NCBI GenBank assembly: GCA_949283025.1
Contig: CASDRB010000005.1
Coordinates: 23,588-87,587, forward strand
Length of the DNA: 64,000 nt
DNA from: an uncultured bacterium
GTDB taxonomy: Bacteria > Bacillota_I > Bacilli_A > RFN20 > CAG-826
Reading direction: 5' to 3'
Made by a program: the position numbers and the translations under genes. How positions within the stretch are numbered: position 1 is the first letter of the stretch; each line of letters begins with the position of its first letter. The notes under the pieces were generated by a model. It was given only the letters and a program-made list of their open reading frames with translations. It did no database searches and was not told where the DNA came from. This document shows, one piece after another, positions 4,088 to 57,000 of this stretch.

Positions 4088-5828
4088 TATGCAAAGAACA
4101 TGCTTTAATTGCGATTTAAATATAAAAAATGTTGGCGAGAAAGTTGTTTTATTAGGATGGGCCAGTAAAAGAAGAAATCTAGGACAATTGCTATTTATCG
4201 ATTTAAGAGATAGATCTGGGATTATTCAAGTAGTAGTAAAAGATGGAACTGAAATTCCTGATATCCGCAATGAATATGTTTTGCAAGTTTATGGCACAGT
4301 AGCCAAAAAAGATGTAGCAAACAAAAATTTAAAAACAGGAGAAATAGAAATAATTGCCGATAAGATAATTGTCGTCAATAAAGCTAAAAATCCGCCATTA
4401 ATTATCGATGATAAAACAGATGCATTAGAAGATACTCGCCTTAAATATCGTTATTTAGACTTAAGACGACCAGTAATGCAACATTATTTTGATATTAGAC
4501 ATCAAATAAAATTGACTGTCCATGATTATCTATCTAATTTGCATTTTATCGAAATAGAAACCCCTGTGTTGTGTGCTAGTTCTCCAGAAGGAGCCAAAGA
4601 ATATTTGGTTCCATCAAGAATTCATCATGGCAGTTTTTATGCATTGCCGCAAAGCCCACAAATGTTTAAACAATTATTGATGATTGGCGGATTTGAAAGA
4701 TATTATCAAATTGCCCGTTGTTTTAGAGATGAAGATTTAAGAGCTGATAGACAGCCAGATTTTACTCAAATTGACATCGAAACTTCATTTTTAGATCAAA
4801 ATCAATTTTTAAATATGATGGAAGGCCTTGTACAAAAAATATTTAAAAATACAATTGGCTACGATGTTAAATTGCCACTAAGACAGATGAAATATAAAGA
4901 CGCAATCGATAACTATGGTTCAGATAAACCTGATACTAGATTTGATATGATGCTTCATAATATTAAAAAGATGATGCAAAAATCGAGTTTTGAAGGATTT
5001 AAATCGGCCGAAGATATCCGTGGTATAAAAGTTGAAAATGTCGCTGATAAAACTTCGCGAAAAGTTATTGATTCCTTAAACTTAGAAGCAAAAAAATTCT
5101 CTTTAAATGGAGTCAGCGTATTAAAAGTCGATCAAAATGAATTGCAAGGATCTTTTGTTAAATTTATGGACCAGGATTTAATAAATGAATTAGTCGATGA
5201 ATTTAAGGCAAAAGATAATGATATTATCATTATTACAAGTGGTGCATACAATCGTGTCACATCATTTTTAGGAGCGATAAGAAATCAATATGCTAAACAA
5301 TTGAACTTAATTAAACCAAATACATATGATTTATTGTGGGTCGTCGATTTCCCAATGTTTGAAAAAAATGTTGAAGATCAAAAAATTGTGGCCACTCATC
5401 ATCCTTTCACTAGACCAAAAGATGAATCTATTCAATATTTAGATACTAATCCATTAAATGTACTAAGTTATGCTTATGATATTGTAATTAATGGCTATGA
5501 AGCTGGCGGTGGAACATTGCGTATTTATGACCAAGACATGCAACAAAAAATATTTGAAATTTTAGGTTTATCAGATGATGAAATCAAAGAAAAATTTGGA
5601 TATTTTATTGAAGCCTTAAAATATGGCACGCCTCCTCATGCAGGTATGGCTTTTGGACTTGATCGACTCGCTATGATATTGGGTGGAACCGACAATATTC
5701 GCGATGTGATAGCTTTTCCAAAAAATCTCGCTGGAGTTTGTCCTATGTCTGGCGCTCCGACTAAAGTTAGTCAATCACAATTAGATGAACTAGGGCTTAT
5801 CATCAAAGATTACAAAGAAACTAAATAA
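4080..5828 (+). CDS. aspS: aspartate--tRNA ligase
   Basis: N-terminal OB fold (VVLLGWASKRRNLGQLLFIDLRDRSG), class II motifs (FRDEDLRADRQPDFTQID, GGGTLRIYD, AGMAFGLDRL). Start moved to ATG 4080 (MNNMQRT), preceded by AAAGGAG and overlapping the hisS stop (ATGAATAA). The ORF-track start at 3984 is an in-frame extension through the hisS tail. Confidence 0.88.
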   Translation: MNNMQRTCFNCDLNIKNVGEKVVLLGWASKRRNLGQLLFIDLRDRSGIIQVVVKDGTEIPDIRNEYVLQVYGTVAKKDVANKNLKTGEIEIIADKIIVVNKAKNPPLIIDDKTDALEDTRLKYRYLDLRRPVMQHYFDIRHQIKLTVHDYLSNLHFIEIETPVLCASSPEGAKEYLVPSRIHHGSFYALPQSPQMFKQLLMIGGFERYYQIARCFRDEDLRADRQPDFTQIDIETSFLDQNQFLNMMEGLVQKIFKNTIGYDVKLPLRQMKYKDAIDNYGSDKPDTRFDMMLHNIKKMMQKSSFEGFKSAEDIRGIKVENVADKTSRKVIDSLNLEAKKFSLNGVSVLKVDQNELQGSFVKFMDQDLINELVDEFKAKDNDIIIITSGAYNRVTSFLGAIRNQYAKQLNLIKPNTYDLLWVVDFPMFEKNVEDQKIVATHHPFTRPKDESIQYLDTNPLNVLSYAYDIVINGYEAGGGTLRIYDQDMQQKIFEILGLSDDEIKEKFGYFIEALKYGTPPHAGMAFGLDRLAMILGGTDNIRDVIAFPKNLAGVCPMSGAPTKVSQSQLDELGLIIKDYKETK

Positions 5829-5859
5829 TTGCTAAAAATATACTAAAAGGAGTAAAATT

Positions 5860-7842
5860 ATGCAAAAAATCAGAGAAATCGACAAATTATCAGTGGCAGC
5901 AATACGCTCGCTATGTATCGATGGAATCAACAAAGCAAAATCGGGTCATCCTGGAATGGCATTAGGTTCTGCACCTATTCTTTATACTTTGTGGACAAGA
6001 CACTTAGTCAGCGATCCTACACATCCGGAATGGATTAATCGCGATCGTTTTGTTTTAAGTGCCGGTCATGCTAGCATGCTTTTATATGCTTTGTTGCATA
6101 TAGCTGGCTATGGACTATCTTTGGATGACATTAAATCATTTAGGCAATTAAATTCATTAACTCCTGGTCATCCTGAATTTGGTCATACAAAAGGCGTAGA
6201 TGCGACATCTGGTCCTTTGGGACAAGGTATTGCTCAAGCAGTTGGGATGGCAATGGCTGAACAGTCGATTCAAGCTCAATATGAAGATGGCCATAAAATA
6301 ATGGATCATTATACTTATGTATTATGTGGAGATGGATGCTTGGAGGAAGGTTTATCTCAAGAAGCCATTTCTTTGGCAGGCCATCAAAAATTGAATAAAT
6401 TAATATTGCTTTATGATTCAAACAAAGTAACTTTAGATGGTCCATTACCACTATCTTTTTCTGAATCTGTTAGTTTGCGTTTTCAATCAAGTGGTTGGAA
6501 TGTAATTCATGTTGAAGATGGAAATGACATAGACGCAATTGATTCAGCAATTAGTAAAGCCAAAAAATCAAAAGAAAAACCGACAATAATTATCGTAGAA
6601 ACCGTCATTGGTTATGGAAGCGCTAAACAAGGAACATCAAAAGTTCATGGATCTCCATTAGGAATTGAAGACGGAACTCATGCAAAAAAAGAAGTATATG
6701 GATATGATTACGATGACTTTTTTATTCCAGAAGAAGTTTATAAACATTTTGAAAAAACTTTTATAAATCGCGGTAAAGAAGCGTATGAGAAATATGTCCA
6801 TAATTTTGAAAATTATTCTAAAAAACATACAAAAGATGCGGTAAGATTCAAACTTTTAAGAAAAAACGATGTGTCTGAGTATTTGCCTAAAGTTTTCCCA
6901 GATTTTGAAAAAGGTAGCGCTGATTCGACTAGAAACTCTTCTGGTAAAGCACTAAACGCTTATATTTTATCAATTCCTAATATGATAGGTGGTTCTGCTG
7001 ATGTCGCCGGTTCGGTCATCACCAAAATTAATGGTGGAACAGATTTTACCCCCGAAAATAGAGCAGGGCACAATATCAATTGGGGGATTAGAGAATTTGC
7101 GATGGCTTGTGCTCAAAACGGAATGCTATTACATGGCGGTCTTAGACCATATATTGGCTGTTTTTTGGTCTTTTCTGATTACATGAAATCTGCAATTAGA
7201 ATGGCTGCATTATCTAATTTGCCTGGCATATTCTTATTCTCGCACGATAGTATCGCCGTCGGTGAAGATGGGCCAACTCATCAACCGATTGAACATTTAG
7301 CTATGCTTAGATCAATACCAAATCTTGTTGTCATACGTCCTTGCGATGAACGAGAAACGTTTGCAGCGTGGTATCAAGCTTTAGCTTCTATCAAGCATCC
7401 TACGGCTTTGATTTTATCTAGACAAAATTTGCCTTTATTAGATAATTCTAGTGCTGAAGGATTAAGCAAAGGTGCTTATATTGTTTCTAAAGAACAAAAA
7501 GAAGCGGTTTTAGACATTATTGCTACTGGAAGCGAAGTGTCATTAGCTGTTGATGTTCAAAAAGAGTTACTTAAAGATGGAATAGATGTTCGCATCATAT
7601 CGATGCCATCATGGGAATTATTTGAAAGACAAAGCAAAGAGTATAAATCTCAAATTCTTCATTTGCCATACGAACGACGAGTTTCAATTGAAATGCTTTC
7701 TACATTCGGCTGGGCAAAATATGCAAAATATAATATAGGCATTGATACATTTGGGGCAAGCGGGCCTGCTAAAGATATTATCAAACATTATCGCTTTACA
7801 TGTGAGGATATTGTTAAAAAAATCAAAAGTTTAATTTCTTGA
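5860..7842 (+). CDS. tkt: transketolase
   Basis: 660 aa. TPP-binding GHPG..GDGCLEEG motifs. AAAGGAG SD. Confidence 0.9.
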   Translation: MQKIREIDKLSVAAIRSLCIDGINKAKSGHPGMALGSAPILYTLWTRHLVSDPTHPEWINRDRFVLSAGHASMLLYALLHIAGYGLSLDDIKSFRQLNSLTPGHPEFGHTKGVDATSGPLGQGIAQAVGMAMAEQSIQAQYEDGHKIMDHYTYVLCGDGCLEEGLSQEAISLAGHQKLNKLILLYDSNKVTLDGPLPLSFSESVSLRFQSSGWNVIHVEDGNDIDAIDSAISKAKKSKEKPTIIIVETVIGYGSAKQGTSKVHGSPLGIEDGTHAKKEVYGYDYDDFFIPEEVYKHFEKTFINRGKEAYEKYVHNFENYSKKHTKDAVRFKLLRKNDVSEYLPKVFPDFEKGSADSTRNSSGKALNAYILSIPNMIGGSADVAGSVITKINGGTDFTPENRAGHNINWGIREFAMACAQNGMLLHGGLRPYIGCFLVFSDYMKSAIRMAALSNLPGIFLFSHDSIAVGEDGPTHQPIEHLAMLRSIPNLVVIRPCDERETFAAWYQALASIKHPTALILSRQNLPLLDNSSAEGLSKGAYIVSKEQKEAVLDIIATGSEVSLAVDVQKELLKDGIDVRIISMPSWELFERQSKEYKSQILHLPYERRVSIEMLSTFGWAKYAKYNIGIDTFGASGPAKDIIKHYRFTCEDIVKKIKSLIS

Positions 7843-10625: not shown

Positions 10626-10643
10626 CAATAAAAAGTTAAAAAA

Positions 10644-10659
10644 TAGTATTTATTTAGTA
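10644..10659 (+). repeat. intergenic TAGTA-N6-TAGTA motif copy D (TAGTATTTATTTAGTA), overlapping the dxs start codon
   Basis: See the motif-family finding. The second TAGTA ends in the A of the dxs ATG. Confidence 0.45.
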
Positions 10660-12509
10660 TGAAAGAAAAAAAGATTCAAATAGACATCAAACAAATTAAT
10701 GATCCTAATATAGTCAAAAGCATTCCGTATAAACAATTAGGTAATTTTAGCGATGAGATTAGGAGATATATTATTCAATCTGTTTCAAAAAATGGTGGGC
10801 ATCTTGCCTCCAATTTAGGGACTGTAGATGCAACTATTTCATTGTGTCGTTGCTTTGACTTTTCAAAAGATAAAATACTATTTGATGTCGGCCATCAATC
10901 ATACACTTATAAAATATTAACAGGTCGGTCATTAGATAATTTAAGACAAAAAAATGGTATTAGTGGTTTTCAAAAAATTAAAGAATCAACTTATGATGTT
11001 TTTGAAGCCGGACATTCATCTACTTCAATTAGCGCCGCTAATGGTATGGCAATTGCTAGAGATTTGAAAGATGAAGATTACAATATAATCGCCTTTATAG
11101 GTGATGCATCCATTGTTAGCGGGTTAGCCTTTGAAGGATTAAACAACGTTTCACAAGGGAATCATAAAATAATTATCATTTTAAATGATAATAACATGTC
11201 TATTTCTAGGCCGATAGGCGGCATGGGAAGATTTTTAAAACGAATTTCGCATAGCGCTGTTTATACAAGCGCAAAAGAAAAATATAAGCGTATTTTATTA
11301 AAAACAAGAATTGGTAACAAAATATATAATGCAAGTTTTCGCTTTAAAAATCGTATAAAACACTTTCTTGTTCCAGTCACCATTTTTGACAATATGGGAT
11401 TTAAATACATCGGACCAGTTTTCGGTCATGATTTTAAAGCGATGGATAAAGCTTTTTTAAAAGCAAAAAAACAAAAAAATTCTGTTGTTGTCCATTTAAG
11501 AACAATTAAAGGGAAGGGTTATAAATACTCTGAAAATGACAAAATCGGTGATTGGCACGGAGTAAAACCATTTGATATAAAAACAGGCTTATCCATTGAG
11601 CAAGATAAAACAGCTTCTTGGAGTAAAATTTATGCTGATATTGTGCATGATGCAATGTCTAAAAATCAAAATTTAGTGGTTATAAATCCCGCCATGGTTA
11701 ACGGGTCTTCGCTTCAAAATATATTTAAAGATTTTAAAAAACGTTGTTTCGATGTAGGTATTTCTGAAGAACATGCCTTTACAATGGCCAGCGGTGTATC
11801 ACTAAATGGTCTTCATCCAATTATTTCGATTTATTCAACGTTTTTGCAACGCGGATACGATGAGATGTTGCACGATGTCATTCGGATGAATTTAAATTGC
11901 ACAGTTTTAATCGATAGATCCGGATTATGTGGAAACGACGGAGATACGCATTTAGGAATTTTTGATGAAAGTTTAATATATAACTTGCCAGGAAATGTCA
12001 TAACAATGGCAAGTAATCCTAAACAAGCCAAAACATTATTTATTGAATCAATTAGTAGTAATCACGGACTTTTTGCTATTAGATATCCAAAAGAAAATAT
12101 TTTTATTGATGATAATGATAAGATTGCAAATTTTGCTGAATGGAACAAAATTTTAGATTATACTGGCGCCAAAAAATGTGTAGTCGGTGTCGGTCCAAAT
12201 ACAATTAGATTATGTAAACTAATTTCTGATAGTAATAAAAATGTTGATGTTTATGAGGCTGTGTATCAAAAACCTTATAATTTTGTCTATATCAATGAAT
12301 TAAAAAAATATTCCGAAATTATTGTTTATCAAAGTTATGCTACTAAACATGGTTTTGTTGATGATCTTACAATTAAACTTTATCAATCAAATTATAAAGG
12401 CAAACTTGTTTTAAAATATGTACCAGATCAATTTATCAACGAAGCCTCCATACAAGAACAATTAAAAGATTTAAAATTGTTGCCAGAAGATATTTTTGAG
12501 CTTTTATAA
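10659..12509 (+). CDS. dxs: 1-deoxy-D-xylulose-5-phosphate synthase
   Basis: 616 aa. TPP motif GDASIVSGLAFEGLNN, GGHLASNLG, Dxs-typical N-terminus. No SD visible upstream. Confidence 0.88.
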   Translation: MKEKKIQIDIKQINDPNIVKSIPYKQLGNFSDEIRRYIIQSVSKNGGHLASNLGTVDATISLCRCFDFSKDKILFDVGHQSYTYKILTGRSLDNLRQKNGISGFQKIKESTYDVFEAGHSSTSISAANGMAIARDLKDEDYNIIAFIGDASIVSGLAFEGLNNVSQGNHKIIIILNDNNMSISRPIGGMGRFLKRISHSAVYTSAKEKYKRILLKTRIGNKIYNASFRFKNRIKHFLVPVTIFDNMGFKYIGPVFGHDFKAMDKAFLKAKKQKNSVVVHLRTIKGKGYKYSENDKIGDWHGVKPFDIKTGLSIEQDKTASWSKIYADIVHDAMSKNQNLVVINPAMVNGSSLQNIFKDFKKRCFDVGISEEHAFTMASGVSLNGLHPIISIYSTFLQRGYDEMLHDVIRMNLNCTVLIDRSGLCGNDGDTHLGIFDESLIYNLPGNVITMASNPKQAKTLFIESISSNHGLFAIRYPKENIFIDDNDKIANFAEWNKILDYTGAKKCVVGVGPNTIRLCKLISDSNKNVDVYEAVYQKPYNFVYINELKKYSEIIVYQSYATKHGFVDDLTIKLYQSNYKGKLVLKYVPDQFINEASIQEQLKDLKLLPEDIFELL

Positions 12510-17685: not shown

Positions 17686-17734
17686 AATAGAAATTTGAAA
17701 AGAAACTCTCCTATAAATAGTAGGAGGTTTTTTA

Positions 17735-18273
17735 TGGAAAATAATCAAATGAAATTTAAAACAGAACAAATTTATCAATCGATGATATCGCTGCAAGAAA
17801 AAAATGAAGTAATTAAAAAAATGGCTAATCAAGCTGAATGGATGAAAAGACAATTAGAATATATGATCTATTCATTAAGTCACAAAGTAAAATACAACTT
17901 AAGAAAAGGTGATATATTAGAAATTGATTGGGGCGTTAACGTTAATGCTGAATTTTCAAACAGACATTATGGTGTAGTTTTGCTTGATTCGAATGAAAAT
18001 AATCCATTAGTATTAGTTTGTCCATTAAAAAGTAATCATAAAGGAGCGCATCCAAAATCAGATTTAGATCTTGGAATAATTGAAGGACTAAAACACGGCA
18101 CGACAACATTAGCGGTTATAAATCAAATAAGAATGATTGATAAAATGAGAATTTATGTTCGCAAAATCATCAACGGAAAAGAATGCGAAAACGATAATTT
18201 AACGATGCCAAAAATTTATATTGATAAGATTATTAACTCATATAAATTATTGGTTGAGGGGAGATTATCATAA
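17735..18273 (+). CDS. MazF/PemK/Kid-fold protein (putative endoribonuclease toxin) with about 55-aa N-terminal helical extension
   Basis: RKGDILEIDWG..VVLLDS..LVLVCPLKS..INQIRMIDKMRI matches Kid/MazF (ERGEIWLVSL..VPVTS..DQPRTIDMKAR). AGGAGG SD before ATG 17735. Confidence 0.7.
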
Positions 18274-18277
18274 ATAT

Positions 18278-18298
18278 ATTAGTAGTTTTCTAGTAGTT
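18278..18298 (+). repeat. intergenic TAGTA-N6-TAGTA motif copy A (ATTAGTAGTTTTCTAGTAGTT)
   Basis: Starts 4 nt after the stop codon. See the motif-family finding. Confidence 0.5.
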
Positions 18299-26958: not shown

Positions 26959-26959
26959 T

Positions 26960-26989
26960 ATTAGTATTTATCTAGTAGTTTTTTAGTAT
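26960..26989 (+). repeat. intergenic TAGTA-repeat motif copy B (ATTAGTATTTATCTAGTAGTTTTTTAGTAT; three TAGTA units)
   Basis: Starts 2 nt after the plsY stop. Shares the exact 17-mer TAGTAGTTTTTTAGTAT with copy C. Confidence 0.5.
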
Positions 26990-27104
26990 AAATTGCAATT
27001 GTGTAAAACTTTTCCACAATGAAATGATTTTAAAAATTAACTTGTTCTATTCTATGTTTTATATTGACTAAATTTCATTTTTTAAGCCATCGTTAAATTT
27101 AGCA

Positions 27105-34452: not shown

Positions 34453-35328
34453 ATGCAGATTGATATACTTAGTCCTAACGGATATTGTTATGGTGTAAAA
34501 CGGGCAATAAATTTAGCGTTGGATATCAAAAAAGAAAATCCCAACAAAAAAGTTTATGTCTTAGGGATGTTGGTTCACAATAACTATGTATGTGATTTTT
34601 TACTAAAAAATCAAATTTTCACTATCGATGTGCCTCCCAATAAATATAAAGAAGTTTTATTAAAATTAAAATCTGATGATATAGTTATTTTTACCGCCCA
34701 TGGTCATGACATCGAATTAGATCAAATAATTAAAGATAAAAAAATTCAATCATATGACGCTATCTGTCCTATGGTTAAACATAATAACGACTTAATTAAA
34801 AACGCACTGGAAAAAGGAAAAAAAGTAATATACATAGGACAAAAAAATCATCCAGAAGCCATAGGCGCTTTAAGCATGAGTAACGATATTATTTTTATGA
34901 CTAATAAATTACTAGATTTATCCTATTACGATAAGAAACTTAATTATTTTGTAATAAATCAAACAACTCTAAATATCGAGGAATTAAAAGGCATTCATAA
35001 GGATTTAAAATCAATTTTTCCCAATATAGAAATTGCTGACGAGATATGTGCCGCAACAAGATTAAGACAACAGACTATCTTACAATTAACAGGGTATGAT
35101 GTTTTACTAGTAGTCGGTTCATTAAAAAGTAGCAATACAAATAAATTATACGATATTGCAACAAATAAATTGCTTGATATATCAACATTTCGAATTGAAT
35201 CTTTAAAAGATATTCCTTTTAATAAATTGAACAAACAACAAAAAATTGCAATAACCGGCGGAACTTCAACTCCAAGCAAATTACTGCAATTAATTAAAGA
35301 AGAAATAACAAATTATTTTATTAAATAA
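34453..35328 (+). CDS. ispH: 4-hydroxy-3-methylbut-2-enyl diphosphate reductase
   Basis: 291 aa. LytB fold with Cys ligands (SPNGYCYGV, CPMV, ICAAT). Confidence 0.85.
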   Translation: MQIDILSPNGYCYGVKRAINLALDIKKENPNKKVYVLGMLVHNNYVCDFLLKNQIFTIDVPPNKYKEVLLKLKSDDIVIFTAHGHDIELDQIIKDKKIQSYDAICPMVKHNNDLIKNALEKGKKVIYIGQKNHPEAIGALSMSNDIIFMTNKLLDLSYYDKKLNYFVINQTTLNIEELKGIHKDLKSIFPNIEIADEICAATRLRQQTILQLTGYDVLLVVGSLKSSNTNKLYDIATNKLLDISTFRIESLKDIPFNKLNKQQKIAITGGTSTPSKLLQLIKEEITNYFIK

Positions 35329-49754: not shown

Positions 49755-49781
49755 CTGGCACTCACCTTTCCTGAGTGCTAA
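49755..49781. promoter_or_regulatory. CIRCE operator 1 (CTGGCACTC-N9-GAGTGCTAA)
   Basis: 7/9 + 9/9 match to TTAGCACTC-N9-GAGTGCTAA, 12 nt upstream of the hrcA ATG. Confidence 0.8.
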
Positions 49782-49800
49782 CTATATTATATGCATAAAA

Positions 49801-49827
49801 ATAGCACTGTCAACATAAAAGTGCTAA
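49801..49827. promoter_or_regulatory. CIRCE operator 2 (ATAGCACTG-N9-AAGTGCTAA)
   Basis: 7/9 + 8/9 match to the CIRCE consensus, 20 nt upstream of CIRCE 1. Confidence 0.7.
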
Positions 49828-49845: not shown

Positions 49846-50982
49846 CTATAATCTTGAATAATCGGTTTGATACTTATCAATTTTTAACAAAAGATCTATT
49901 ACAATAGTATCTAAAATCATCATTCCCTCATAAGTTAAATAAACACGATTATTATCTTTTTTCATTAATCCTTTATTTATGTATTTAAAAAATATGTCAC
50001 CACAAACTTGATTTAAATCAAAATTAAATTTATTTGTAAATTCTTTCAAGTCTATTCCTAAATCAGTTCTTAAATTTAACATTATGTAATATTCGATATC
50101 ATCATTAAGATTTATTTTTTCCTTTTCTTTAATAAAATTGAATTGAAGATATTCATTGATACTTTTAGTGTTTTGATACCTAAATCCATCAATATAGCCT
50201 GAGGCTCCTAATCCAATTCCATAATACTCTTTATCGCGCCAATAAATTAAATTATGTTTTGAAAAATAACTAGGCATTGAAAAATTAGATATTTCATAAT
50301 GAATAAAGCCTTTTGAAAGCAAAAAGTTATGCACATAATCATATTGTTGACGACACATATCTTGGCTTGGTTCTTTTATTTTATTGTTATAAAATAATGT
50401 ATGGGGAGAAATTGTGAGTGAATAAGTAGAAATATGTTGAATGTTTAATTTAATCAAATTGTCTAAATCCTTTTTTAACGATTCTAAGTTAGTATTTGGT
50501 AGCCCTAAAATTAAATCGACGTTAATATTGTCAAAGCCTAACTTTTGGCTTTCTTTAACAACGCGAACAACATCGTCAAAATTATGATGACGATTTAAAG
50601 ATAATAAAATTTTGTCATCGCTTGATTCAACTCCAATCGATAGCCGATTCACACCATATTGTTTCAACAATCGCAGTTTTTCTATATTAAGTGTTTCTAC
50701 ATTAGTTTCAAATGTATATTCCATTCCCTTTTTATAATATGGGAACAAGATTTTTAATAAAAAAAGAAGCTGATTTAAATCTAAACTTGTCGGCGTGCCG
50801 CCACCGACATATATAGTTTCAACTTCTTCAATTTGATAAAAGTCCAATTCTTTTTTTAGCACTTGCAAATATTGGCTAGCTAAATTAGAAAAATATTGCA
50901 TTTTGCAAAAATCGCAATATGCGCAAATATGTTGACAAAAGGGAATATGGATGTATAAACCTCGATGATTATTTTTCTTCAT
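49846..50982 (-). CDS. hemW: radical SAM heme chaperone HemW (HemN-like, oxygen-independent coproporphyrinogen oxidase family)
   Basis: CQHICAYCDFC radical-SAM motif. lepA-hemW-hrcA neighbourhood as in Bacillus. Confidence 0.85.
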   Translation of the reverse strand: MKKNNHRGLYIHIPFCQHICAYCDFCKMQYFSNLASQYLQVLKKELDFYQIEEVETIYVGGGTPTSLDLNQLLFLLKILFPYYKKGMEYTFETNVETLNIEKLRLLKQYGVNRLSIGVESSDDKILLSLNRHHNFDDVVRVVKESQKLGFDNINVDLILGLPNTNLESLKKDLDNLIKLNIQHISTYSLTISPHTLFYNNKIKEPSQDMCRQQYDYVHNFLLSKGFIHYEISNFSMPSYFSKHNLIYWRDKEYYGIGLGASGYIDGFRYQNTKSINEYLQFNFIKEKEKINLNDDIEYYIMLNLRTDLGIDLKEFTNKFNFDLNQVCGDIFFKYINKGLMKKDNNRVYLTYEGMMILDTIVIDLLLKIDKYQTDYSRL

Positions 50983-51217
50983 CTTCTGGTGATTTGTATT
51001 CGCTGATATCCTTAGCTATTTTTTCATCATCGACCGGTTCTAAAACACGATCTAATTCTTCTTTTAAAGCTTGATTTTCATCAATTTTTGGTTTGTCTTT
51101 TAATTTTGGATGAGTTAGACGATATATAATAAACGTTATTAAAGCGATAACGGCAGCTATGCCGATAATAATAAGCAATATAATTCCAGAATTTTCTAAA
51201 AGATTGGCTAATAACAT
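50969..51217 (-). CDS. small single-pass membrane protein with acidic C-terminus
   Basis: 82 aa. One TM helix (IILLIIIGIAAVIALITFII), then a charged tail. Tightly packed between the Fic-fold gene and hemW. Confidence 0.45.
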   Translation of the reverse strand: MLLANLLENSGIILLIIIGIAAVIALITFIIYRLTHPKLKDKPKIDENQALKEELDRVLEPVDDEKIAKDISEYKSPEDEEK

Positions 51218-51228
51218 ATTCTGTTCCT

Positions 51229-52713
51229 CTACTTTCTTTTTATGGGCGTATATACTTTTTTATTTTTTACCATCTCTTGACGATAATACCCCAAACGTGC
51301 CAATGTGTCCATAGAAGTTCTTGCAGTTTCATAAGCGCTGCCAACTTCTTTTTTAAATTGTTGAATTGTATAACGCTTCCCCATCGTGCAATGTCTAGCG
51401 TAAAAATACGCTTGACTTCTTGTTAATTCTGGGTCGCTTTCTAAAAGATGCTCTTCTAATCTTGCTGCTTCTTTTTCATCTAAAACCGGTGGCAAGGATG
51501 AAATAGCTAAGCCGCTGTATTCCTTATCTAATTCAATTTTTTGTTCTTCTTGAGGTTGAATTTTTATTGATTCTTTTTCGTTATTAACATTTTCTTGTTT
51601 AATTATTTTTTCTTGTTTTAAATCGCATTCATCAATTTCTTTAACAGAATCTAATTTTTCATTTTCATGATAATATGGCGATTTTTTTGCCTCTTGTTTG
51701 GCTTCAAAATAATATTCTTCCTTTAATGAAATAGCTTGTAAATTATTCATGCGGCTAATTTCTTTTTCAATACATTCATTAAAAAGATGAATAAATAATT
51801 TTAACATATAAGTTAAATCATTAGTTTTTTGCACTTCGATACAAACTTTTTCGACTCTTTCTTTTAAATCAGACAAAAGTCTTTCTAAATTTAAAGTAAA
51901 AGCTACGTCACCAACTTCGCTTTTTGCAATGACGGCCTTTGTTAATAATAACGCCAATTCTTCATTGTAAGCAAAAAATGGTTTGACATAATTAAAATAA
52001 TAAAACACTGCACAAGCTTTTATTGTTACACCACATTGTGATTCATTAATGAATTTTATTAATAAATTCATCATAGGAACAATAGCGTATACTGGTGCAG
52101 ATTCATAAATTCGATCGATAATAAATCGATTTCCTGGATTGTCAAAATTTGTATCTCTATATAATTGCGTCAATTCTGTATCATTAGAGATAATAGAATA
52201 TAGATTTGCTAAATAATCTTCATCAATAATATCCCCCATATGGGTTTTAACATAATCTAAACCATCTAAATAGCAGGATAAAATGTTGAGTTGTTCATCA
52301 TCAACTTTAATTTTTTTTGCAATTAGCATTCTTAAATATTTTTCATCGACATCTAAATTGTTTTTTTTAGCAACGCTACTTAAACACTCAATTAAAGCAG
52401 TCTGCACATAAATATTCTTATCATTGGTATCGACACTTAAATCATTATATTTTTTTATTAAATTTACTAATTTGATTTCAACATTATTTATTTCTTCAGA
52501 AATTGTAGGAGAAAGACAATAAGATAAAAATGTGGTTCGATCAACTGCACTCAAATTTAAGTTATGAGCAAATTCAGATCGATATTTCAAAATATTTTTC
52601 CAAAAGCTATCAATTAAAGGCGTTTTTAATTCATGTGCCACTTCAGCTTTTGTGGCGTATGTGTTTTCTGTAAAACGAATTGCAATATTAGTATTATTAT
52701 AGGCCATAAACAT
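51229..52713 (-). CDS. Fic-fold protein with degenerate active-site motif and C-terminal wHTH (function unknown)
   Basis: GNRFIIDRIYESAPVYAIVPMMNLLIKFIN..IKACAVFYYFNYVKPFFAYNEELALLL follows the Fic core pattern, but KPFFAYNEE replaces HPFxDGNGR. The C-terminus looks like a Fic-type wHTH (YETARTSMDTLARLGYY). Confidence 0.5.
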   Translation of the reverse strand: MFMAYNNTNIAIRFTENTYATKAEVAHELKTPLIDSFWKNILKYRSEFAHNLNLSAVDRTTFLSYCLSPTISEEINNVEIKLVNLIKKYNDLSVDTNDKNIYVQTALIECLSSVAKKNNLDVDEKYLRMLIAKKIKVDDEQLNILSCYLDGLDYVKTHMGDIIDEDYLANLYSIISNDTELTQLYRDTNFDNPGNRFIIDRIYESAPVYAIVPMMNLLIKFINESQCGVTIKACAVFYYFNYVKPFFAYNEELALLLTKAVIAKSEVGDVAFTLNLERLLSDLKERVEKVCIEVQKTNDLTYMLKLFIHLFNECIEKEISRMNNLQAISLKEEYYFEAKQEAKKSPYYHENEKLDSVKEIDECDLKQEKIIKQENVNNEKESIKIQPQEEQKIELDKEYSGLAISSLPPVLDEKEAARLEEHLLESDPELTRSQAYFYARHCTMGKRYTIQQFKKEVGSAYETARTSMDTLARLGYYRQEMVKNKKVYTPIKRK

Positions 52714-52761
52714 TTCTCCTTTCTTTTATTATATAAAAAGAAATTAGTGATGACAATTAAA

Positions 52762-52782
52762 ATACTAAAAAACTACTAATTT
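52762..52782 (-). repeat. intergenic TAGTA-N7-TAGTA motif copy C (minus-strand reading ATTAGTAGTTTTTTAGTAT)
   Basis: Lies between the lepA stop and the -35 of the downstream gene. Identical 17-mer to copy B. Confidence 0.5.
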
Positions 52783-52795
52783 TATTCAAATCAAA

Positions 52796-52826
52796 AAAAT
52801 AAACAAGTATAATTCTTGCTTATTTT
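52796..52826 (-). terminator. weak AT-rich hairpin at the lepA stop codon
   Basis: AAAATAAACAAG..CTTGCTTATTTT stem (11 bp, one mismatch), T-rich sequence downstream. Confidence 0.3.
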
Positions 52827-54633
52827 AATTATCGTCTATAGCCAAAATGCTCATAAACGCTTCTTGTGGCACTTCCACAGAACCAATTTTTTTCATTCGT
52901 TTTTTACCTTCTTTTTGCTTTTCAAGAAGCTTCTTTTTTCTAGTGATATCCCCACCATAACATTTTGCTAAAACATCTTTTCTAACAGCCTTAATATCTA
53001 CTCTTGCTATTATTTTTCCACCAATAGCGGCTTGAACAGGAACTTCAAATTGTTGTCTAGGAATTATATTTTTTAAATTTCTAATAATCGCTAATCCTCG
53101 ATTGTATGCGCTTGGTTTAAAAACAATCGATGTTAAGGCATCAATAATTTGACCATTTAATAAAATATCAAGTTTCGCTAGATTAGATATTTTATAATCA
53201 GACATTTCATAGTCAAGCGATGCGTATCCTTTTGTACACGATTTTAATTTGTCAAAAAAATTAAAAATTATCTCGCTTAAAGGTATTTCGTATGTCAAAG
53301 TCATTCTCGTATCATCAAAATATTCCATATCAAGATAAATGCCGCGCTTTTCTTGACACAATTCCATGATTGGACCAACATATTCTTTTGGCGACATTAT
53401 CAACGCTTTAACATATGGTTCTTCAATAGAAGAAACTGTCGTCATATCAGGCAATTTTGAAGGATTATCCAAATAGATGACATTCCCATTTGTCAAATTA
53501 ATTTTATAAATGACGCTCGGCGCTGTTAATACTAGATTTAAATCGTATTCTCTTTCAAGACGTTCTTGAACTACATCCATATGAAGCAATCCTAAAAAAC
53601 CACATCTAAAGCCAAATCCTAGGGCTTGTGATGTTTCAGCAACGAATTGCAGCGAGGAATCATTTAATGACAATTTTTCTAATGCATCTTTTAAATTTAA
53701 ATAATCATCGCTATCAACAGGATATAAACCGCAATATACCATCGGATTAATTTTTCGATATCCAGGAAGCGGACAATTAGTTTGTCGTTCTAACAATGTC
53801 ACAGTTTCTCCAGGGCGAACATCTTTAATATCTTTAATTTGGGCACATATATATCCAACTTGACCTACTTTTAAATTCTTTAATTTAAGTTCTTTTGGCG
53901 TTCTTATTCCTACCTCTGTAACTAGATATTCTTTTTTAGCAGCCATCAAAAAAATTTTATCGCCAACGTTGACTTCACCATCAAAAACTCTCACTAATAT
54001 GACGACCCCTCGATATGAATCGTAATAACTATCGAATATCAAAGCCTTAAAAGGCTTATTTTCATCTCCTATAGGCGATGGAATATCAGAAACAATTTTT
54101 TCCAAAACATCGTGAATATTTAATCCTGTTTTAGCACTTACTAAACAAGCGTCGCTGGCTGGTATTCCAATTCGATTTTCGATTTCTTGCTTTGCTAAAT
54201 CAATTTGGGCACTTGGTAAATCTATTTTATTAATGACAGGAATAATAGCTAAATCATTATCAATAGCTAAATAAACATTAGCTAACGTTTGAGCTTCTAC
54301 ACCTTGTGAGGCATCTACAACGAGCAATGCACCTTCACAAGCCGCCAATGATCTAGATACTTCATATGAAAAGTCAACATGCCCAGGAGTATCAATTAAA
54401 TTAAATATATAATCTTCTCCATCATCCGCATGATATTTTAAAGTCACAGCATTTAATTTTATGGTAATGCCCCTTTCCCTTTCAAGATCCATCGAATCAA
54501 GAAGTTGCTCTTTCATCTCTCGTTCTTGAATTGCTCCTGTTTGTTCTAAAATGCGATCTGCTAAGGTTGATTTACCATGATCGATATGAGCAATGATTGA
54601 AAAATTACGAATTTTGTTTTTATTAAATTCCAT
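52825..54633 (-). CDS. lepA: elongation factor 4 (LepA)
   Basis: G1 [18 protein letters not shown]. 602 aa. Confidence 0.93.
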
Positions 54634-54648
54634 GTGTAATAATATATA

Positions 54649-57000
54649 TTATTTTTTAAAAAAGTGCGATACTAATTTATCAATATCGTCGCAGTTAAAT
54701 ACAATCTTATAATTTTTCCATTCTTCTTTAAACAAATCTTGATATTTATTTAAAGTATAACGTTCATCAATCAACAATACTGCCCCGCGATCGTTTTCAC
54801 TTCTAATCACTCGACCGACAGCTTGCATTACTTTATTCATGCCAGGATTAACATAGGCATAATCTTTTCCTGGCAAATTTAAATTATCATATCTTGCGGC
54901 AATTTGATCTGAAACAAAATTGATTTTTGGCATCCCGACACCGATAATAACCGCTCCAATTAAACGATCAGAAACTAAATCTACACCTTCAGAAAAAGCT
55001 CCGCCTATCACAGCTAATCCAACCATTGTTTTTTTAGGTTCGTAAACAAAGTTATTTAAAAATTCTTCTTTTTTAACATCATCCATCTCTTTTTCTTGTT
55101 TGATTATTAAATATTCATCGCTTTGCAATAAAAAACTAAGATTTTCTAAATACTCATAAGATGGTGAAAAGACCAAATAATTCCCGATTTTATGAGAGAC
55201 AAAGGCTTTAATATATTCAGCAACTTGTTGATATGTATTTTTCCTATTAGCATATTTAATAGAAATTTTGGGCGCAATTAATAACAATAAATTATCGCTT
55301 GGAAAAGGTGAAGCAAGACTTAAATACGGCTCTTGCCTTTCTCCGCCAAGCAAATCGGCAAAATATTCAAAAGGCGATAGCGTAGCAGAAAAAAAGATGC
55401 TAGAATGAACTCTATTAGTAACTGATTTTAAAAATTTTGAGGCATCAAGACAAACCAAATTTATAGTTAAATCATTCTTCTTATCAGTTTTGTGGATATA
55501 TAAAATAAAGCACTCAGAATAATAATCAAATATTTTTAAAAATTTATTTACATCTAAGAAAAAATCATTCAATTCCGCACTTATTAATTCATGATGAGAT
55601 TTGCTCATATCTTGATATGCATTATAAAAACTTGATAATATCGTGTAAGTCTTTGGTAACAAATCATTTAAAATGGTATAACCATTTTTATATGTTCCGT
55701 CGTATTCTTTAAACATTTTGTTCAACTTTGTGAATGTTCTTTTGATGGGCTTATAATCAACCTTTGTTAAAGATTTTTTGGCTTTTTTAAAATTATAAAA
55801 TGAGATGTTGGATGAATACATTTCTTTTGAACGTTCAATTAAGTTATGAGCCTCATCAATCAATAAGTAATAATTAGATGCATCTTCATCAAAATATCGC
55901 TTCATGTAAACTAACGGGTCAAATACATAGTTGTAGTCGCATATGATGATATCGCAATATAAAGACAAATCTAATTCTAATTCAAATGGGCAAATATTAT
56001 TTTTTAAAGCGATATCAACAATAGTTTGAAAATCAAAATCAGTTTTGCTTAACAAAGATTCTTTTAGCACATCTTGAATTTTATTGTAATATCCAATAGC
56101 AAATGGACATTCATCAGGATTGCAACCCTTGCCTTGATTAAAGCAAATTTTGTCTTTAGCGGTAATTAAAATCTCATTAATTTTTAACCCATGTTTTTTT
56201 AAAATTAAAATAGCTTGATAAGCTGATTCTTTTCCAGAGTTTTTAGCTGTCAAATAAAATATGCGACCATCCTTATTTTTTTCTAATAATTTAATATTAG
56301 GAAACAATGTTGACATCGTCTTACCAATTCCGGTTGGAGCTTGAACAAACAATCTTCCACCTTTTTTACCAACTAAGTATGTATATTTTGCTAATTTTTT
56401 TTGACCTAAACGATAATTTATAAATGGGAATGTCAAAGTTTTAATTGAATTATTTCTTTCGTTTTGCTTTCTTAATAAAATTGCATAAAAATTCGTATAT
56501 GACTCAAATAATGAATAGACGTATTTTTTCACATCATTATATGTGACTCGGTATTGATCAACTAACTTGTCTTTATGTCCTTGGCGAAAATATGTTAAGC
56601 GAATTGACATTTCTTGAATTTTTCGCTCATCCATAAACATTAACGCATAGCATTTGGCCTGACCTAAATGCCACGATTTATTTTCGCTTGCGAATATACT
56701 TAATTCGGCAACCGTCGTTTTTATTTCATCTAATGTATATGTACCATCGTCATTGATAATTATTCCATCAGCGCGTCCTTGCAAAGTTATTTCATAATTA
56801 TCATATAAATATGTTTTTAACAAAGGATATTCGCTTAAATAATTATCACCTTGTCGGCTTTGATAATAACTATGTATTTTACTACCTTCACTCATCGATG
56901 TACGATTAAAAATGCGATTATCAATGTCGCCTTTTCGCAATAAAAAATCAACCAATTGGTGAACTGATAAGTTTAATTGAATATGCTCTTTTTCACTCAT
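54649..57000 (-). CDS. DinG/XPD-family FeS helicase with N-terminal PD-(D/E)xK (RecB/Cas4-like) nuclease domain
   Basis: N-terminus: GRADGII..LDEIKTT..QAKCYALMF (motifs II, III, QhxxY). Helicase: APTGIGKT, DEAHN, 4-Cys cluster (CFNQGKGCNPDECPF..C), QAVGRVIRSENDRG. Confidence 0.75.
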   Translation of the reverse strand: MSEKEHIQLNLSVHQLVDFLLRKGDIDNRIFNRTSMSEGSKIHSYYQSRQGDNYLSEYPLLKTYLYDNYEITLQGRADGIIINDDGTYTLDEIKTTVAELSIFASENKSWHLGQAKCYALMFMDERKIQEMSIRLTYFRQGHKDKLVDQYRVTYNDVKKYVYSLFESYTNFYAILLRKQNERNNSIKTLTFPFINYRLGQKKLAKYTYLVGKKGGRLFVQAPTGIGKTMSTLFPNIKLLEKNKDGRIFYLTAKNSGKESAYQAILILKKHGLKINEILITAKDKICFNQGKGCNPDECPFAIGYYNKIQDVLKESLLSKTDFDFQTIVDIALKNNICPFELELDLSLYCDIIICDYNYVFDPLVYMKRYFDEDASNYYLLIDEAHNLIERSKEMYSSNISFYNFKKAKKSLTKVDYKPIKRTFTKLNKMFKEYDGTYKNGYTILNDLLPKTYTILSSFYNAYQDMSKSHHELISAELNDFFLDVNKFLKIFDYYSECFILYIHKTDKKNDLTINLVCLDASKFLKSVTNRVHSSIFFSATLSPFEYFADLLGGERQEPYLSLASPFPSDNLLLLIAPKISIKYANRKNTYQQVAEYIKAFVSHKIGNYLVFSPSYEYLENLSFLLQSDEYLIIKQEKEMDDVKKEEFLNNFVYEPKKTMVGLAVIGGAFSEGVDLVSDRLIGAVIIGVGMPKINFVSDQIAARYDNLNLPGKDYAYVNPGMNKVMQAVGRVIRSENDRGAVLLIDERYTLNKYQDLFKEEWKNYKIVFNCDDIDKLVSHFFKK

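Follow-up and report, generated by a model that had tools for sequence, protein, structure and literature searches.

A catalytically degenerate Fic protein with a C-terminal winged helix at the lepA–hemW junction of uncultured Bacilli, its membrane-protein neighbour and a candidate operator

FicL, a Fic-fold protein encoded between lepA and hemW in the 64-kb stretch of DNA analysed here (the window), has lost the catalytic residues of the Fic motif and carries a C-terminal winged helix; by fold it is a member of the SoFic/CccR/CbFic2 class of Fic proteins. We put at about even the chances that it serves as a non-catalytic transcription factor of the SoFic/CccR type, which would control the operon formed by its own gene, the gene of a small membrane protein and hemW, with its input coming from the membrane partner and the degenerate Fic domain. 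The first-pass annotation of the locus had offered three functions for such a scaffold (a regulator, a pseudo-enzyme adaptor or a divergent enzyme), of which the regulator is favoured by the winged helix, by the dedicated promoter with its conserved repeat array and by what is known of SoFic and CccR, which bind their own promoters.

Results

The FicL reading frame (51229..52713, minus strand; 494 aa from the first ATG in the ORF list) lies in a run of genes that are all read on the minus strand, in the order DinG-like helicase (54649..57000), lepA (52825..54633), FicL, an 82-aa ORF (50969..51217), hemW (49846..50982), hrcA, grpE and dnaK. Both lepA and hemW, the latter of the radical-SAM/HemN_C heme chaperone family, were assigned through Pfam. 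A second ATG at 52707, which gives a protein of 492 aa and moves the residue numbers by 2, is likely to be the true start, as judged from the gene callers on identical metagenome contigs and from the family consensus (MA.N.LAIRF...). The small ORF begins 11 nt past the FicL stop and its end overlaps the hemW start by 14 nt, the arrangement that had been described at first pass. The hrcA gene has a perfect promoter of its own together with a CIRCE inverted repeat, which leaves FicL, the small ORF and hemW as a separate unit.

The family is large. More than 317 full-length homologues were found, and when all of 1.84 billion representatives were searched with the profile, 286 clusters (50% identity, E<=1e-30) emerged, the best 150 of which were nearly all full-length family members, with a few fragments. 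In a scan of one genome per GTDB species, a FicL relative was present in 477 genomes; the 80 of these that were looked at were all metagenome-assembled genomes (MAGs) of uncultured Bacilli from rumen, gut, digesters and similar sources, among them Coprobacillus sp. CAG:826 and Candidatus Onthovivens in the NCBI lineage. The MAGs that bear FicL belong, we assume, to the GTDB order RFN20. By tblastn, lepA lies directly upstream of FicL in 82 of 85 loci and hemW directly downstream in 83 of 85, the loci without a flanking lepA or hemW match being truncated contigs. The hrcA–dnaK genes stand apart from the FicL locus in some cases (e.g. L005).

Across the full length of the protein, dozens of residues are invariant at 35–75% identity, and no pseudogenisation of FicL was seen in the family. 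Throughout the lineage, then, the FicL/small-protein pair is fixed and passed on vertically rather than being a local insertion, and its initial description as 'inserted' in the lepA–hemW gap was misleading, since the pair is conserved in at least 477 species-level genomes. The source annotations of the homologues read 'hypothetical protein' or, rarely, 'Fic family protein', and our literature search found no paper on the FicL family.

Assignment to the Fic fold rests on the family rather than on the single sequence. Over residues 163–259, the window protein alone scored 17.8 bits with the Pfam Fic domain (E=0.0061), short of the cut-off of 24, and PF02661 was matched by 42 of the 49 members of the family alignment. 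When compared with Fic proteins in the PDB, the family profile matched 4rgl (E=3.8e-11) and 8cil (E=1.5e-6), with [K/R]PF...N[D/E]E aligned onto HPFxDGNGR. The AF2 model built from the family alignment has a pLDDT of 84 and is confident except at residues 352–407; it shows the all-alpha core of PF02661, and the FICD-BiP structures 7b7z and 6zmd are among its fold matches. The PADLOC SoFic model PDLC03963 likewise matches FicL (E=4.9e-6). Profile search and structure prediction, two of the checks suggested at first pass, both confirmed a Fic fold, contrary to the refuting outcome named there, the lack of a Fic match by either route.

The Fic/Fido core spans about residues 139–345 (51679..52299, minus strand). 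Within it, the segment equivalent to the flap (residues 185–207, 52093..52161, minus strand), which reads YR...NPxNRV(L/I)IDRxY(T/S)SAP from the column counts, is among the best-kept stretches of the protein (Y185, R186, N195, I199, D200, Y203 and P207), and the AF2 model is of low confidence at residues 191–200 with no clear hairpin at the flap position. Conservation of the flap region and of many groove residues would be expected if the core still docked a peptide or ligand.

Ahead of the core lies a conserved N-terminal segment of helix-helix-hairpin topology (residues 8–72, 52498..52692, minus strand; IRFTExxYATKxEV...W...YR), in which R13, F14, E16, Y19, W38, Y44 and R45 are among the invariant residues. 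This segment is confidently modelled only within the whole protein. Taken alone, it matched nothing significantly among PDB profiles (E>=0.22), its AF2 model had a pLDDT of 67 and Foldseek returned no significant match, the best being MarR-like at E=1.7. It probably folds only against the Fic core.

The core is followed by an acidic, E/K-rich linker (residues 346–407, 51493..51678, minus strand) with a net charge of -7 in the window protein and a pLDDT below 50 at residues 352–407, indicating disorder. Gaps in the alignment show that the linker varies widely across the family in both length and composition, from E/K-rich to P/V/Q-rich. The C-terminal domain (residues 408–494, 51232..51492, minus strand) consists of an acidic helix and then a basic winged helix-turn-helix with an invariant YETAR..M helix, and it has the C-terminal winged helix-turn-helix of the SoFic-like class (IPR048770). 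A low-complexity linker leading to a C-terminal winged helix, as first read from the sequence, is borne out both by profile and by fold. No significant sequence-profile match was found between this domain and solved winged helix-turn-helix proteins.

The catalytic motif HxFx(D/E)GNGRxxR is absent from FicL. In its place, at residues 244–255 (51949..51984, minus strand), the window protein reads KPFFAYNEELAL, exactly as the first-pass annotation had it, and column counts together with the alignment onto HPFxDGNGR identify this stretch as a degenerate Fic motif with the family form [K/R]-P-F-x-x-[Y/F/H]-[N/S]-[D/E]-E-[I/M]-A-[L/I/V]. In the 49-member alignment the column of the catalytic His holds Lys in 30 members, Arg in 18 and Leu in 1, and at the anion hole D/E stands for the Gly and E for the Arg, which bears out the claimed loss of the His and of the Gly-Asn-Gly-Arg anion hole. 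The companion claim, that Pro, Phe and Asn are kept, holds for P245 and F246, which are invariant, but only in part for the Asn, which is found in 34 of 49 members, with Ser in 14. A wider motif scan, in which about 194 of 261 collected sequences were scored, found Lys or Arg at the His position in 172 and His in one, and in that lone His-bearing member NDE still replaces GNGR.

Because two acidic residues fill the phosphate site, the motif argues strongly against nucleotide binding. We regard FicL with high confidence as a pseudo-enzyme, and the column patterns point to a lineage-wide state rather than to local decay or insertion. A candidate relic of the class II inhibitory helix, R128-S-L-I-x132-G133, is probable from an equivalence drawn by eye; the Gly is present in 38 of 49 members and the position of the inhibitory Glu is occupied by Q, N, D, H or S.

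In its altered form the motif has been kept across the family ([K/R]PF...[N/S][D/E]E), likewise K259 and E277, as might be expected of an enzyme with altered chemistry (hydrolysis, de-modification or another donor) that works through the motif Lys/Arg and the acidic residues. To our knowledge, however, all known Fic/Doc chemistries, deAMPylation included, use the His and the anion-hole loop. The His is missing in all sampled members of the FicL family but one, and the glycine-rich anion hole has given way to two acidic residues that would repel nucleotide. Fic scaffolds do allow several chemistries, e.g. the Doc kinase and AnkX phosphocholination (PMC4454073), and Glu-dependent deAMPylation is known in FICD and SoFic (bioRxiv 10.64898/2026.07.09.737422). 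We consider an altered enzyme very improbable, and among the three functions first proposed a divergent enzyme comes last in likelihood, given the two acidic residues that stand in place of the phosphate-binding loop.

The small ORF encodes a protein with a short N-terminus, a single transmembrane helix at about residues 11–33 and a cytoplasmic tail with the conserved motif EELDRVLxPV(D/E)DE..AK..xYK. Its counterparts beside FicL share a common design, in which a short N-terminus and one transmembrane helix are followed by a basic juxtamembrane segment and an acidic tail. When the longest ORF was taken from each FicL–hemW gap, an ORF of 70–97 aa was found in all 83 gap loci with the possible exception of L053, where the longest ORF is of 174 aa and the usual small ORF lies ahead of it at 7513–7731. 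The small ORF usually overlaps or abuts hemW, and a profile search added at least 180 further proteins of 70–93 aa among the matches listed. Co-occurrence of the pair in relatives, proposed at first pass as a check, is thus seen in essentially every related locus, and the single-pass membrane protein overlapping hemW is as first described.

Comparison of the window small protein with TIGR04561 ('membra_charge') gave 18 bits, below the curated cut-off of 30; sub-threshold matches were obtained for 12 of 25 small-protein members (best E=2.3e-5). No other family resemblance of the small protein was found. The matches indicate a similar architecture and, possibly, a distant relationship.

A small neighbouring partner is common among Fic toxins, and FicL with its small protein could be read as a functionless remnant of a Fic toxin–antitoxin or SoFic-type anti-phage module; SoFic is counted as a defence gene, with the PADLOC match noted above, and the comparable inactive SoFic-like MMSYN1_0805 of JCVI-syn3.0 has been discussed in such a context (PMC13621843). 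Against a remnant stand the full-length conservation with its dozens of invariant residues in 477 species-level genomes, the fixed position in the core genome rather than in an island and the absence of pseudogenisation. Moreover, the (S/T)xxxE(G/N) inhibitory motif of class I FicTA partners (VbhT/VbhA type) does not occur in the window small protein, which crosses the membrane once. The chance of a functionless remnant is close to negligible. As identifications, neither of the two modules stood: the SoFic anti-phage defence gene (PDLC03963) is matched by the model, but the motif is dead and the core position fixed in 82–83 of 85 loci, and a toxin–antitoxin system was rejected, the partner being a membrane protein that lacks the inhibitory motif.

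The spacer between lepA and FicL contains a compact set of signals, all on the minus strand. At the lepA stop, an A/U-rich 12-bp hairpin with a U-run (52796..52826; -9.3 kcal/mol, z = -3.3) resembles a terminator and separates lepA from an array of TTAGTA(G)-N5-TTAGTA direct repeats in an 11-bp register (52761..52781; PWM score 26.8), which we treat as a candidate operator. The core of the array, TTAGTAGTTTTTTAGTA at 52763–52779, is the sole exact TTAGTA-N4-6-TTAGTA match in the 64 kb. A sigma-70-like promoter, TTGTCA-17 nt-TATAAT (52728..52756; 11/12 matches), starts 6 nt past the array and is followed by an AGGAG ribosome-binding site between promoter and FicL start.

This layout recurs in the family. 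In the lepA–FicL spacers of about 75 loci (64 sites aligned), the array usually consists of three T(T/A)AGTA units in an 11-bp register that end a few bases before the -35, and a -10 equivalent to the TATAAT of the window is conserved across loci. With one mismatch at most allowed in the two core units, 79 of 85 loci have the array 40–80 bp ahead of the FicL start codon. Both strands of 950 kb gave 18 further matches, no more than chance would yield by a back-of-envelope estimate of about 36. Five loci (L049, L076, L078, L081 and L084) have an insertion of 0.6–1.2 kb between lepA and FicL. In these the array keeps its place beside FicL, and an ordinary hairpin terminator follows lepA; the inserted genes of L078 and L084 are divergent from FicL. 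As the array stays with FicL past these insertions, it is part of the FicL promoter rather than of the lepA 3' end. From these signals, FicL, the small protein and hemW appear to form an operon with a dedicated promoter.

The 11-bp register is 2 mod 3, and three TTAGTA units consequently place TAG in every frame of one strand and TAA in every frame of the opposite strand. This pattern of stop codons is probably incidental, since the whole hexamer and a T-rich spacer are conserved.

Further copies of the array were sought with a PWM built from 48 sites outside the window. Three sites in the window score at least 20 bits (52761, 26970 and 18277) and five at least 16 bits, compared with means of 0.0 and 0.05, respectively, in 300 Markov simulations. 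The extra copies occur in both orientations, some of them between convergent genes, where no gene obviously lies downstream; they are found just past the stops of PemK-like and plsY-like ORFs and in a 31-bp gap between co-directional genes. In other loci, copies of either orientation sit between dnaK and dnaJ or a short way ahead of other genes. Scanned against Rfam, the window had no match anywhere along its length, so the extra copies do not lie beside a known RNA gene. The factor that binds the array probably has several targets, and the extra copies may fit a more global factor or a different role of the element. An exact 17-mer scan of metagenome contigs listed 120 matches, two of them with FicL and the rest on unrelated AT-rich contigs, and was uninformative about further targets.

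The winged helix of FicL is the leading candidate for binding the array. This choice is drawn in part by analogy, because both CccR and SoFic, the nearest relatives that have been characterised, bind their own promoters: CccR represses its promoter via the C-terminal HTH independently of AMPylation (PMC9755527), and SoFic binds the 100-bp stretch that precedes its start codon (bioRxiv 10.64898/2026.07.09.737422). It is also made because protein and array co-occur in essentially every locus, because the recognition helix and the TTAGTA repeat are near-invariant in a family that elsewhere shares 35–50% identity, and because the long flexible linker would allow two or three winged helices to sit head-to-tail along the same face of the DNA, however the Fic cores are arranged in their assembly. 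Being nearly invariant on both sides, recognition helix and repeat leave a test of their co-variation powerless.

Three observations point away from FicL as the binder. The palindromes of CccR are recognised by a dimer (PMC9755527) and the FicL array is a direct repeat; the C-terminal domain has no significant sequence match to characterised regulators; and copies of the array extend beyond the FicL promoter.

Were some other factor to bind the array, FicL might act as a non-catalytic adaptor whose flap and groove clamp the product of a nearby gene, for which LepA/EF4 or EF-Tu as translational GTPases, DnaK or HemW are candidates, with the winged helix serving dimerisation or localisation instead of the recognition of a DNA sequence. 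The strong conservation of the flap-equivalent segment would fit such a role, as would the constant position of FicL between lepA and the hemW/hrcA-grpE-dnaK cluster, and there are precedents: SoFic clamps the switch I loop of EF-Tu under its flap (bioRxiv 10.64898/2026.07.09.737422), FICD docks the Hsp70 BiP (7b7z and 6zmd, among the fold matches) and in AvrB and BepC the Fic scaffold acts by binding rather than by catalysis (PMC7842960). The link to LepA or DnaK, however, comes from gene neighbourhood; hrcA-grpE-dnaK has its own promoter and CIRCE operator, and hrcA–dnaK is non-adjacent in loci such as L005. Moreover, an adaptor leaves unexplained both the invariant, highly basic winged helix and an array fixed at the promoter, and we consider it unlikely.

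Discussion

In the regulator that we favour, the basic winged helix, carried on its long acidic linker, would bind the TTAGTA array upstream of the FicL -35, and so control the unit of FicL, the small membrane protein and hemW, along with what are probably a small number of other sites in the genome. The N-terminal part and the Fic core would have lost nucleotide binding and transfer, and the core would have become an input module through the conserved flap and groove. The most likely partner of this module would be the single-pass membrane protein translated along with FicL, whose conserved acidic tail is on the cytoplasmic side; binding of the tail would either tether FicL to the membrane or release it. 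We infer the binding of the array by FicL, the sign of the regulation and the contact between FicL and the small protein from the features of the locus and from the related proteins.

Among possible partners, the small membrane protein would be the strongest on circumstantial grounds, and it is favoured because it is always present, immediately downstream and usually translationally coupled into hemW, and because it carries a conserved acidic cytoplasmic helix. For a regulator, being held at or let go from the membrane would be a simple means of gating. The gene neighbourhood and the targets of Fic relatives suggest a translational GTPase, an Hsp70 or HemW as other candidates.

A broader proposal, and a decidedly unlikely one, is that FicL, its membrane partner and the TTAGTA arrays make up a lineage-specific signalling system, in which a dead Fic domain would recognise a protein or ligand, be held at the membrane by the acidic tail of the small protein and be released on a signal, the winged helix on its flexible tether then occupying the arrays scattered over the genome. 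Candidate inputs would be the state of a LepA/EF-Tu-type GTPase, chaperone load or heme status. If true, this would be a new one-component, membrane-gated global regulator derived from an enzyme fossil, and it might explain inactive SoFic-like genes, e.g. MMSYN1_0805, in minimal Mollicutes.

Fic proteins have been studied almost wholly as enzymes, and FicL is a SoFic-type protein that has in all likelihood given up catalysis and yet is under strong selection, at a single fixed locus, in hundreds of uncultured Bacilli of gut and rumen. Together with its candidate operator and partner, it offers a natural test of the non-enzymatic half of SoFic/CccR-type proteins, as well as a candidate regulator for the poorly understood hemW.

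Comparison with known systems places FicL closest to Fic proteins that end in a winged helix. SoFic (Shewanella oneidensis SO_4266; PDB 3eqx/3zcn) has an intact HPFxDGNGR motif and the inhibitory Glu73, and it AMPylates and de-AMPylates EF-Tu. In FicL, by contrast, His and anion hole are gone, as apparently is the inhibitory Glu; a disordered linker of 60–150 aa leads up to the winged helix, and a membrane protein is encoded next door without fail. CccR (Yersinia pseudotuberculosis; related structure 7cb8) is an active, FtsZ-AMPylating T6SS effector, whereas FicL is predicted to be inactive and belongs to the chromosomal core, with a direct repeat as candidate operator in place of the palindromes of CccR. 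Coxiella burnetii Fic2 (PDB 8cil) also differs from FicL, being an active (de)AMPylase that is DNA-induced and an effector of an intracellular pathogen. AvrB and BepC, the non-catalytic uses of the scaffold, are secreted effectors that act on eukaryotic host proteins and have no DNA-binding domain, and BepC, unlike FicL, retains a near-canonical motif.

A further likeness by description is MMSYN1_0805 (391 aa), an inactive protein of unknown function with SoFic/CccR-like Fic and HTH domains in which the catalytic His is replaced by Ser (PMC13621843). Its host, Mycoplasma mycoides/JCVI-syn3.0, belongs to a related low-GC, wall-less branch of the Bacilli. MMSYN1_0805 differs from FicL in lying upstream of rpoB (PMC6755753) rather than between lepA and hemW, and no membrane partner has been reported for it; FicL offers something to compare with this inactive Fic-HTH gene, whose retention in the minimal cell JCVI-syn3.0 has no explanation so far. 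Against these systems, what is new in FicL is a large, strongly conserved Fic clade, in all likelihood inactive throughout, that is fixed at the lepA–hemW junction, with an obligatory single-pass membrane partner, an inserted flexible linker and a sharply conserved direct-repeat array at its promoter.

Features of the FicL promoter region

The ORF of the Fic-like protein FicL as listed (51229-52713, minus strand) begins at the first ATG (52713; MFMAYNN...). The second ATG (52707), which gives a protein of 492 aa starting MAYNN..., is favoured as the probable start by the family consensus, the spacing to the ribosome-binding site and external gene calls.

In the TTAGTA-N5 direct-repeat array upstream of the FicL promoter (52761-52781, minus strand), as in the related loci, the register is 11 bp, that is, 2 modulo 3, so that three TTAGTA units place TAG in all three frames of one strand. 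The complement, TACTAA, in the same register places TAA in all three frames of the other, making the array a six-frame stop array, a property that is probably incidental.

Further copies of the array in the window

A position weight matrix (PWM) scan of the window located additional arrays at 18277-18297 (plus strand), 26959-26990 (plus) and 5817-5848 (minus), together with weaker copies at 10641-10661 (plus) and 34897-34917 (minus). The copies away from the FicL promoter are significant, with PWM scores of 16.6-21.7 against approximately 0.05 matches of 16 or more expected from Markov simulations. Two of the extra copies lie in convergent intergenic regions, directly 3' of stop codons, and downstream of these two neither an Rfam match nor an obvious ORF was found in the window.

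One of these copies lies directly 3' of a 192-aa ORF (17695-18273, plus strand) whose toxin domain is PemK/MazF-like (PF02452, E=6.3e-7) and is preceded by an N-terminal extension of about 70 residues.

Conservation and transcription of the locus

A few relatives (loci L049, L076, L078, L081 and L084) carry insertions of 0.6-1.2 kb between lepA and FicL (at about 5090-5990 in L078 and L084). One example contains two small, divergent ORFs resembling a toxin-antitoxin pair, and another a zinc-ribbon membrane protein. In these relatives the terminator of lepA is a classical GC-containing hairpin, and the repeat array still adjoins FicL.

Precomputed matches to PF27867, a very recent Pfam family, were present in two homologues (P0353 and P0356) of the small membrane protein encoded between FicL and hemW; a Pfam scan of the window protein itself gave no match to this family.

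On the other side of hemW, hrcA has its own, perfect promoter (TTGACA-16-TATAAT), with a CIRCE-type inverted repeat, TAGCACTCAGGAAAGGTGAGTGCCA, directly after it (promoter and repeat together at 49756-49813, minus strand), and transcription of the heat-shock genes is thus separate from that of FicL-small-hemW. In at least one relative (locus L005, 8874-13479) the genes after hemW are not hrcA-grpE-dnaK but an unrelated, convergent set (Cthe_2159, DUF4956, VTC and a histidine kinase). Unlike the lepA-FicL-small-hemW block, which is universal, linkage of FicL to the heat-shock operon therefore does not hold in every case.
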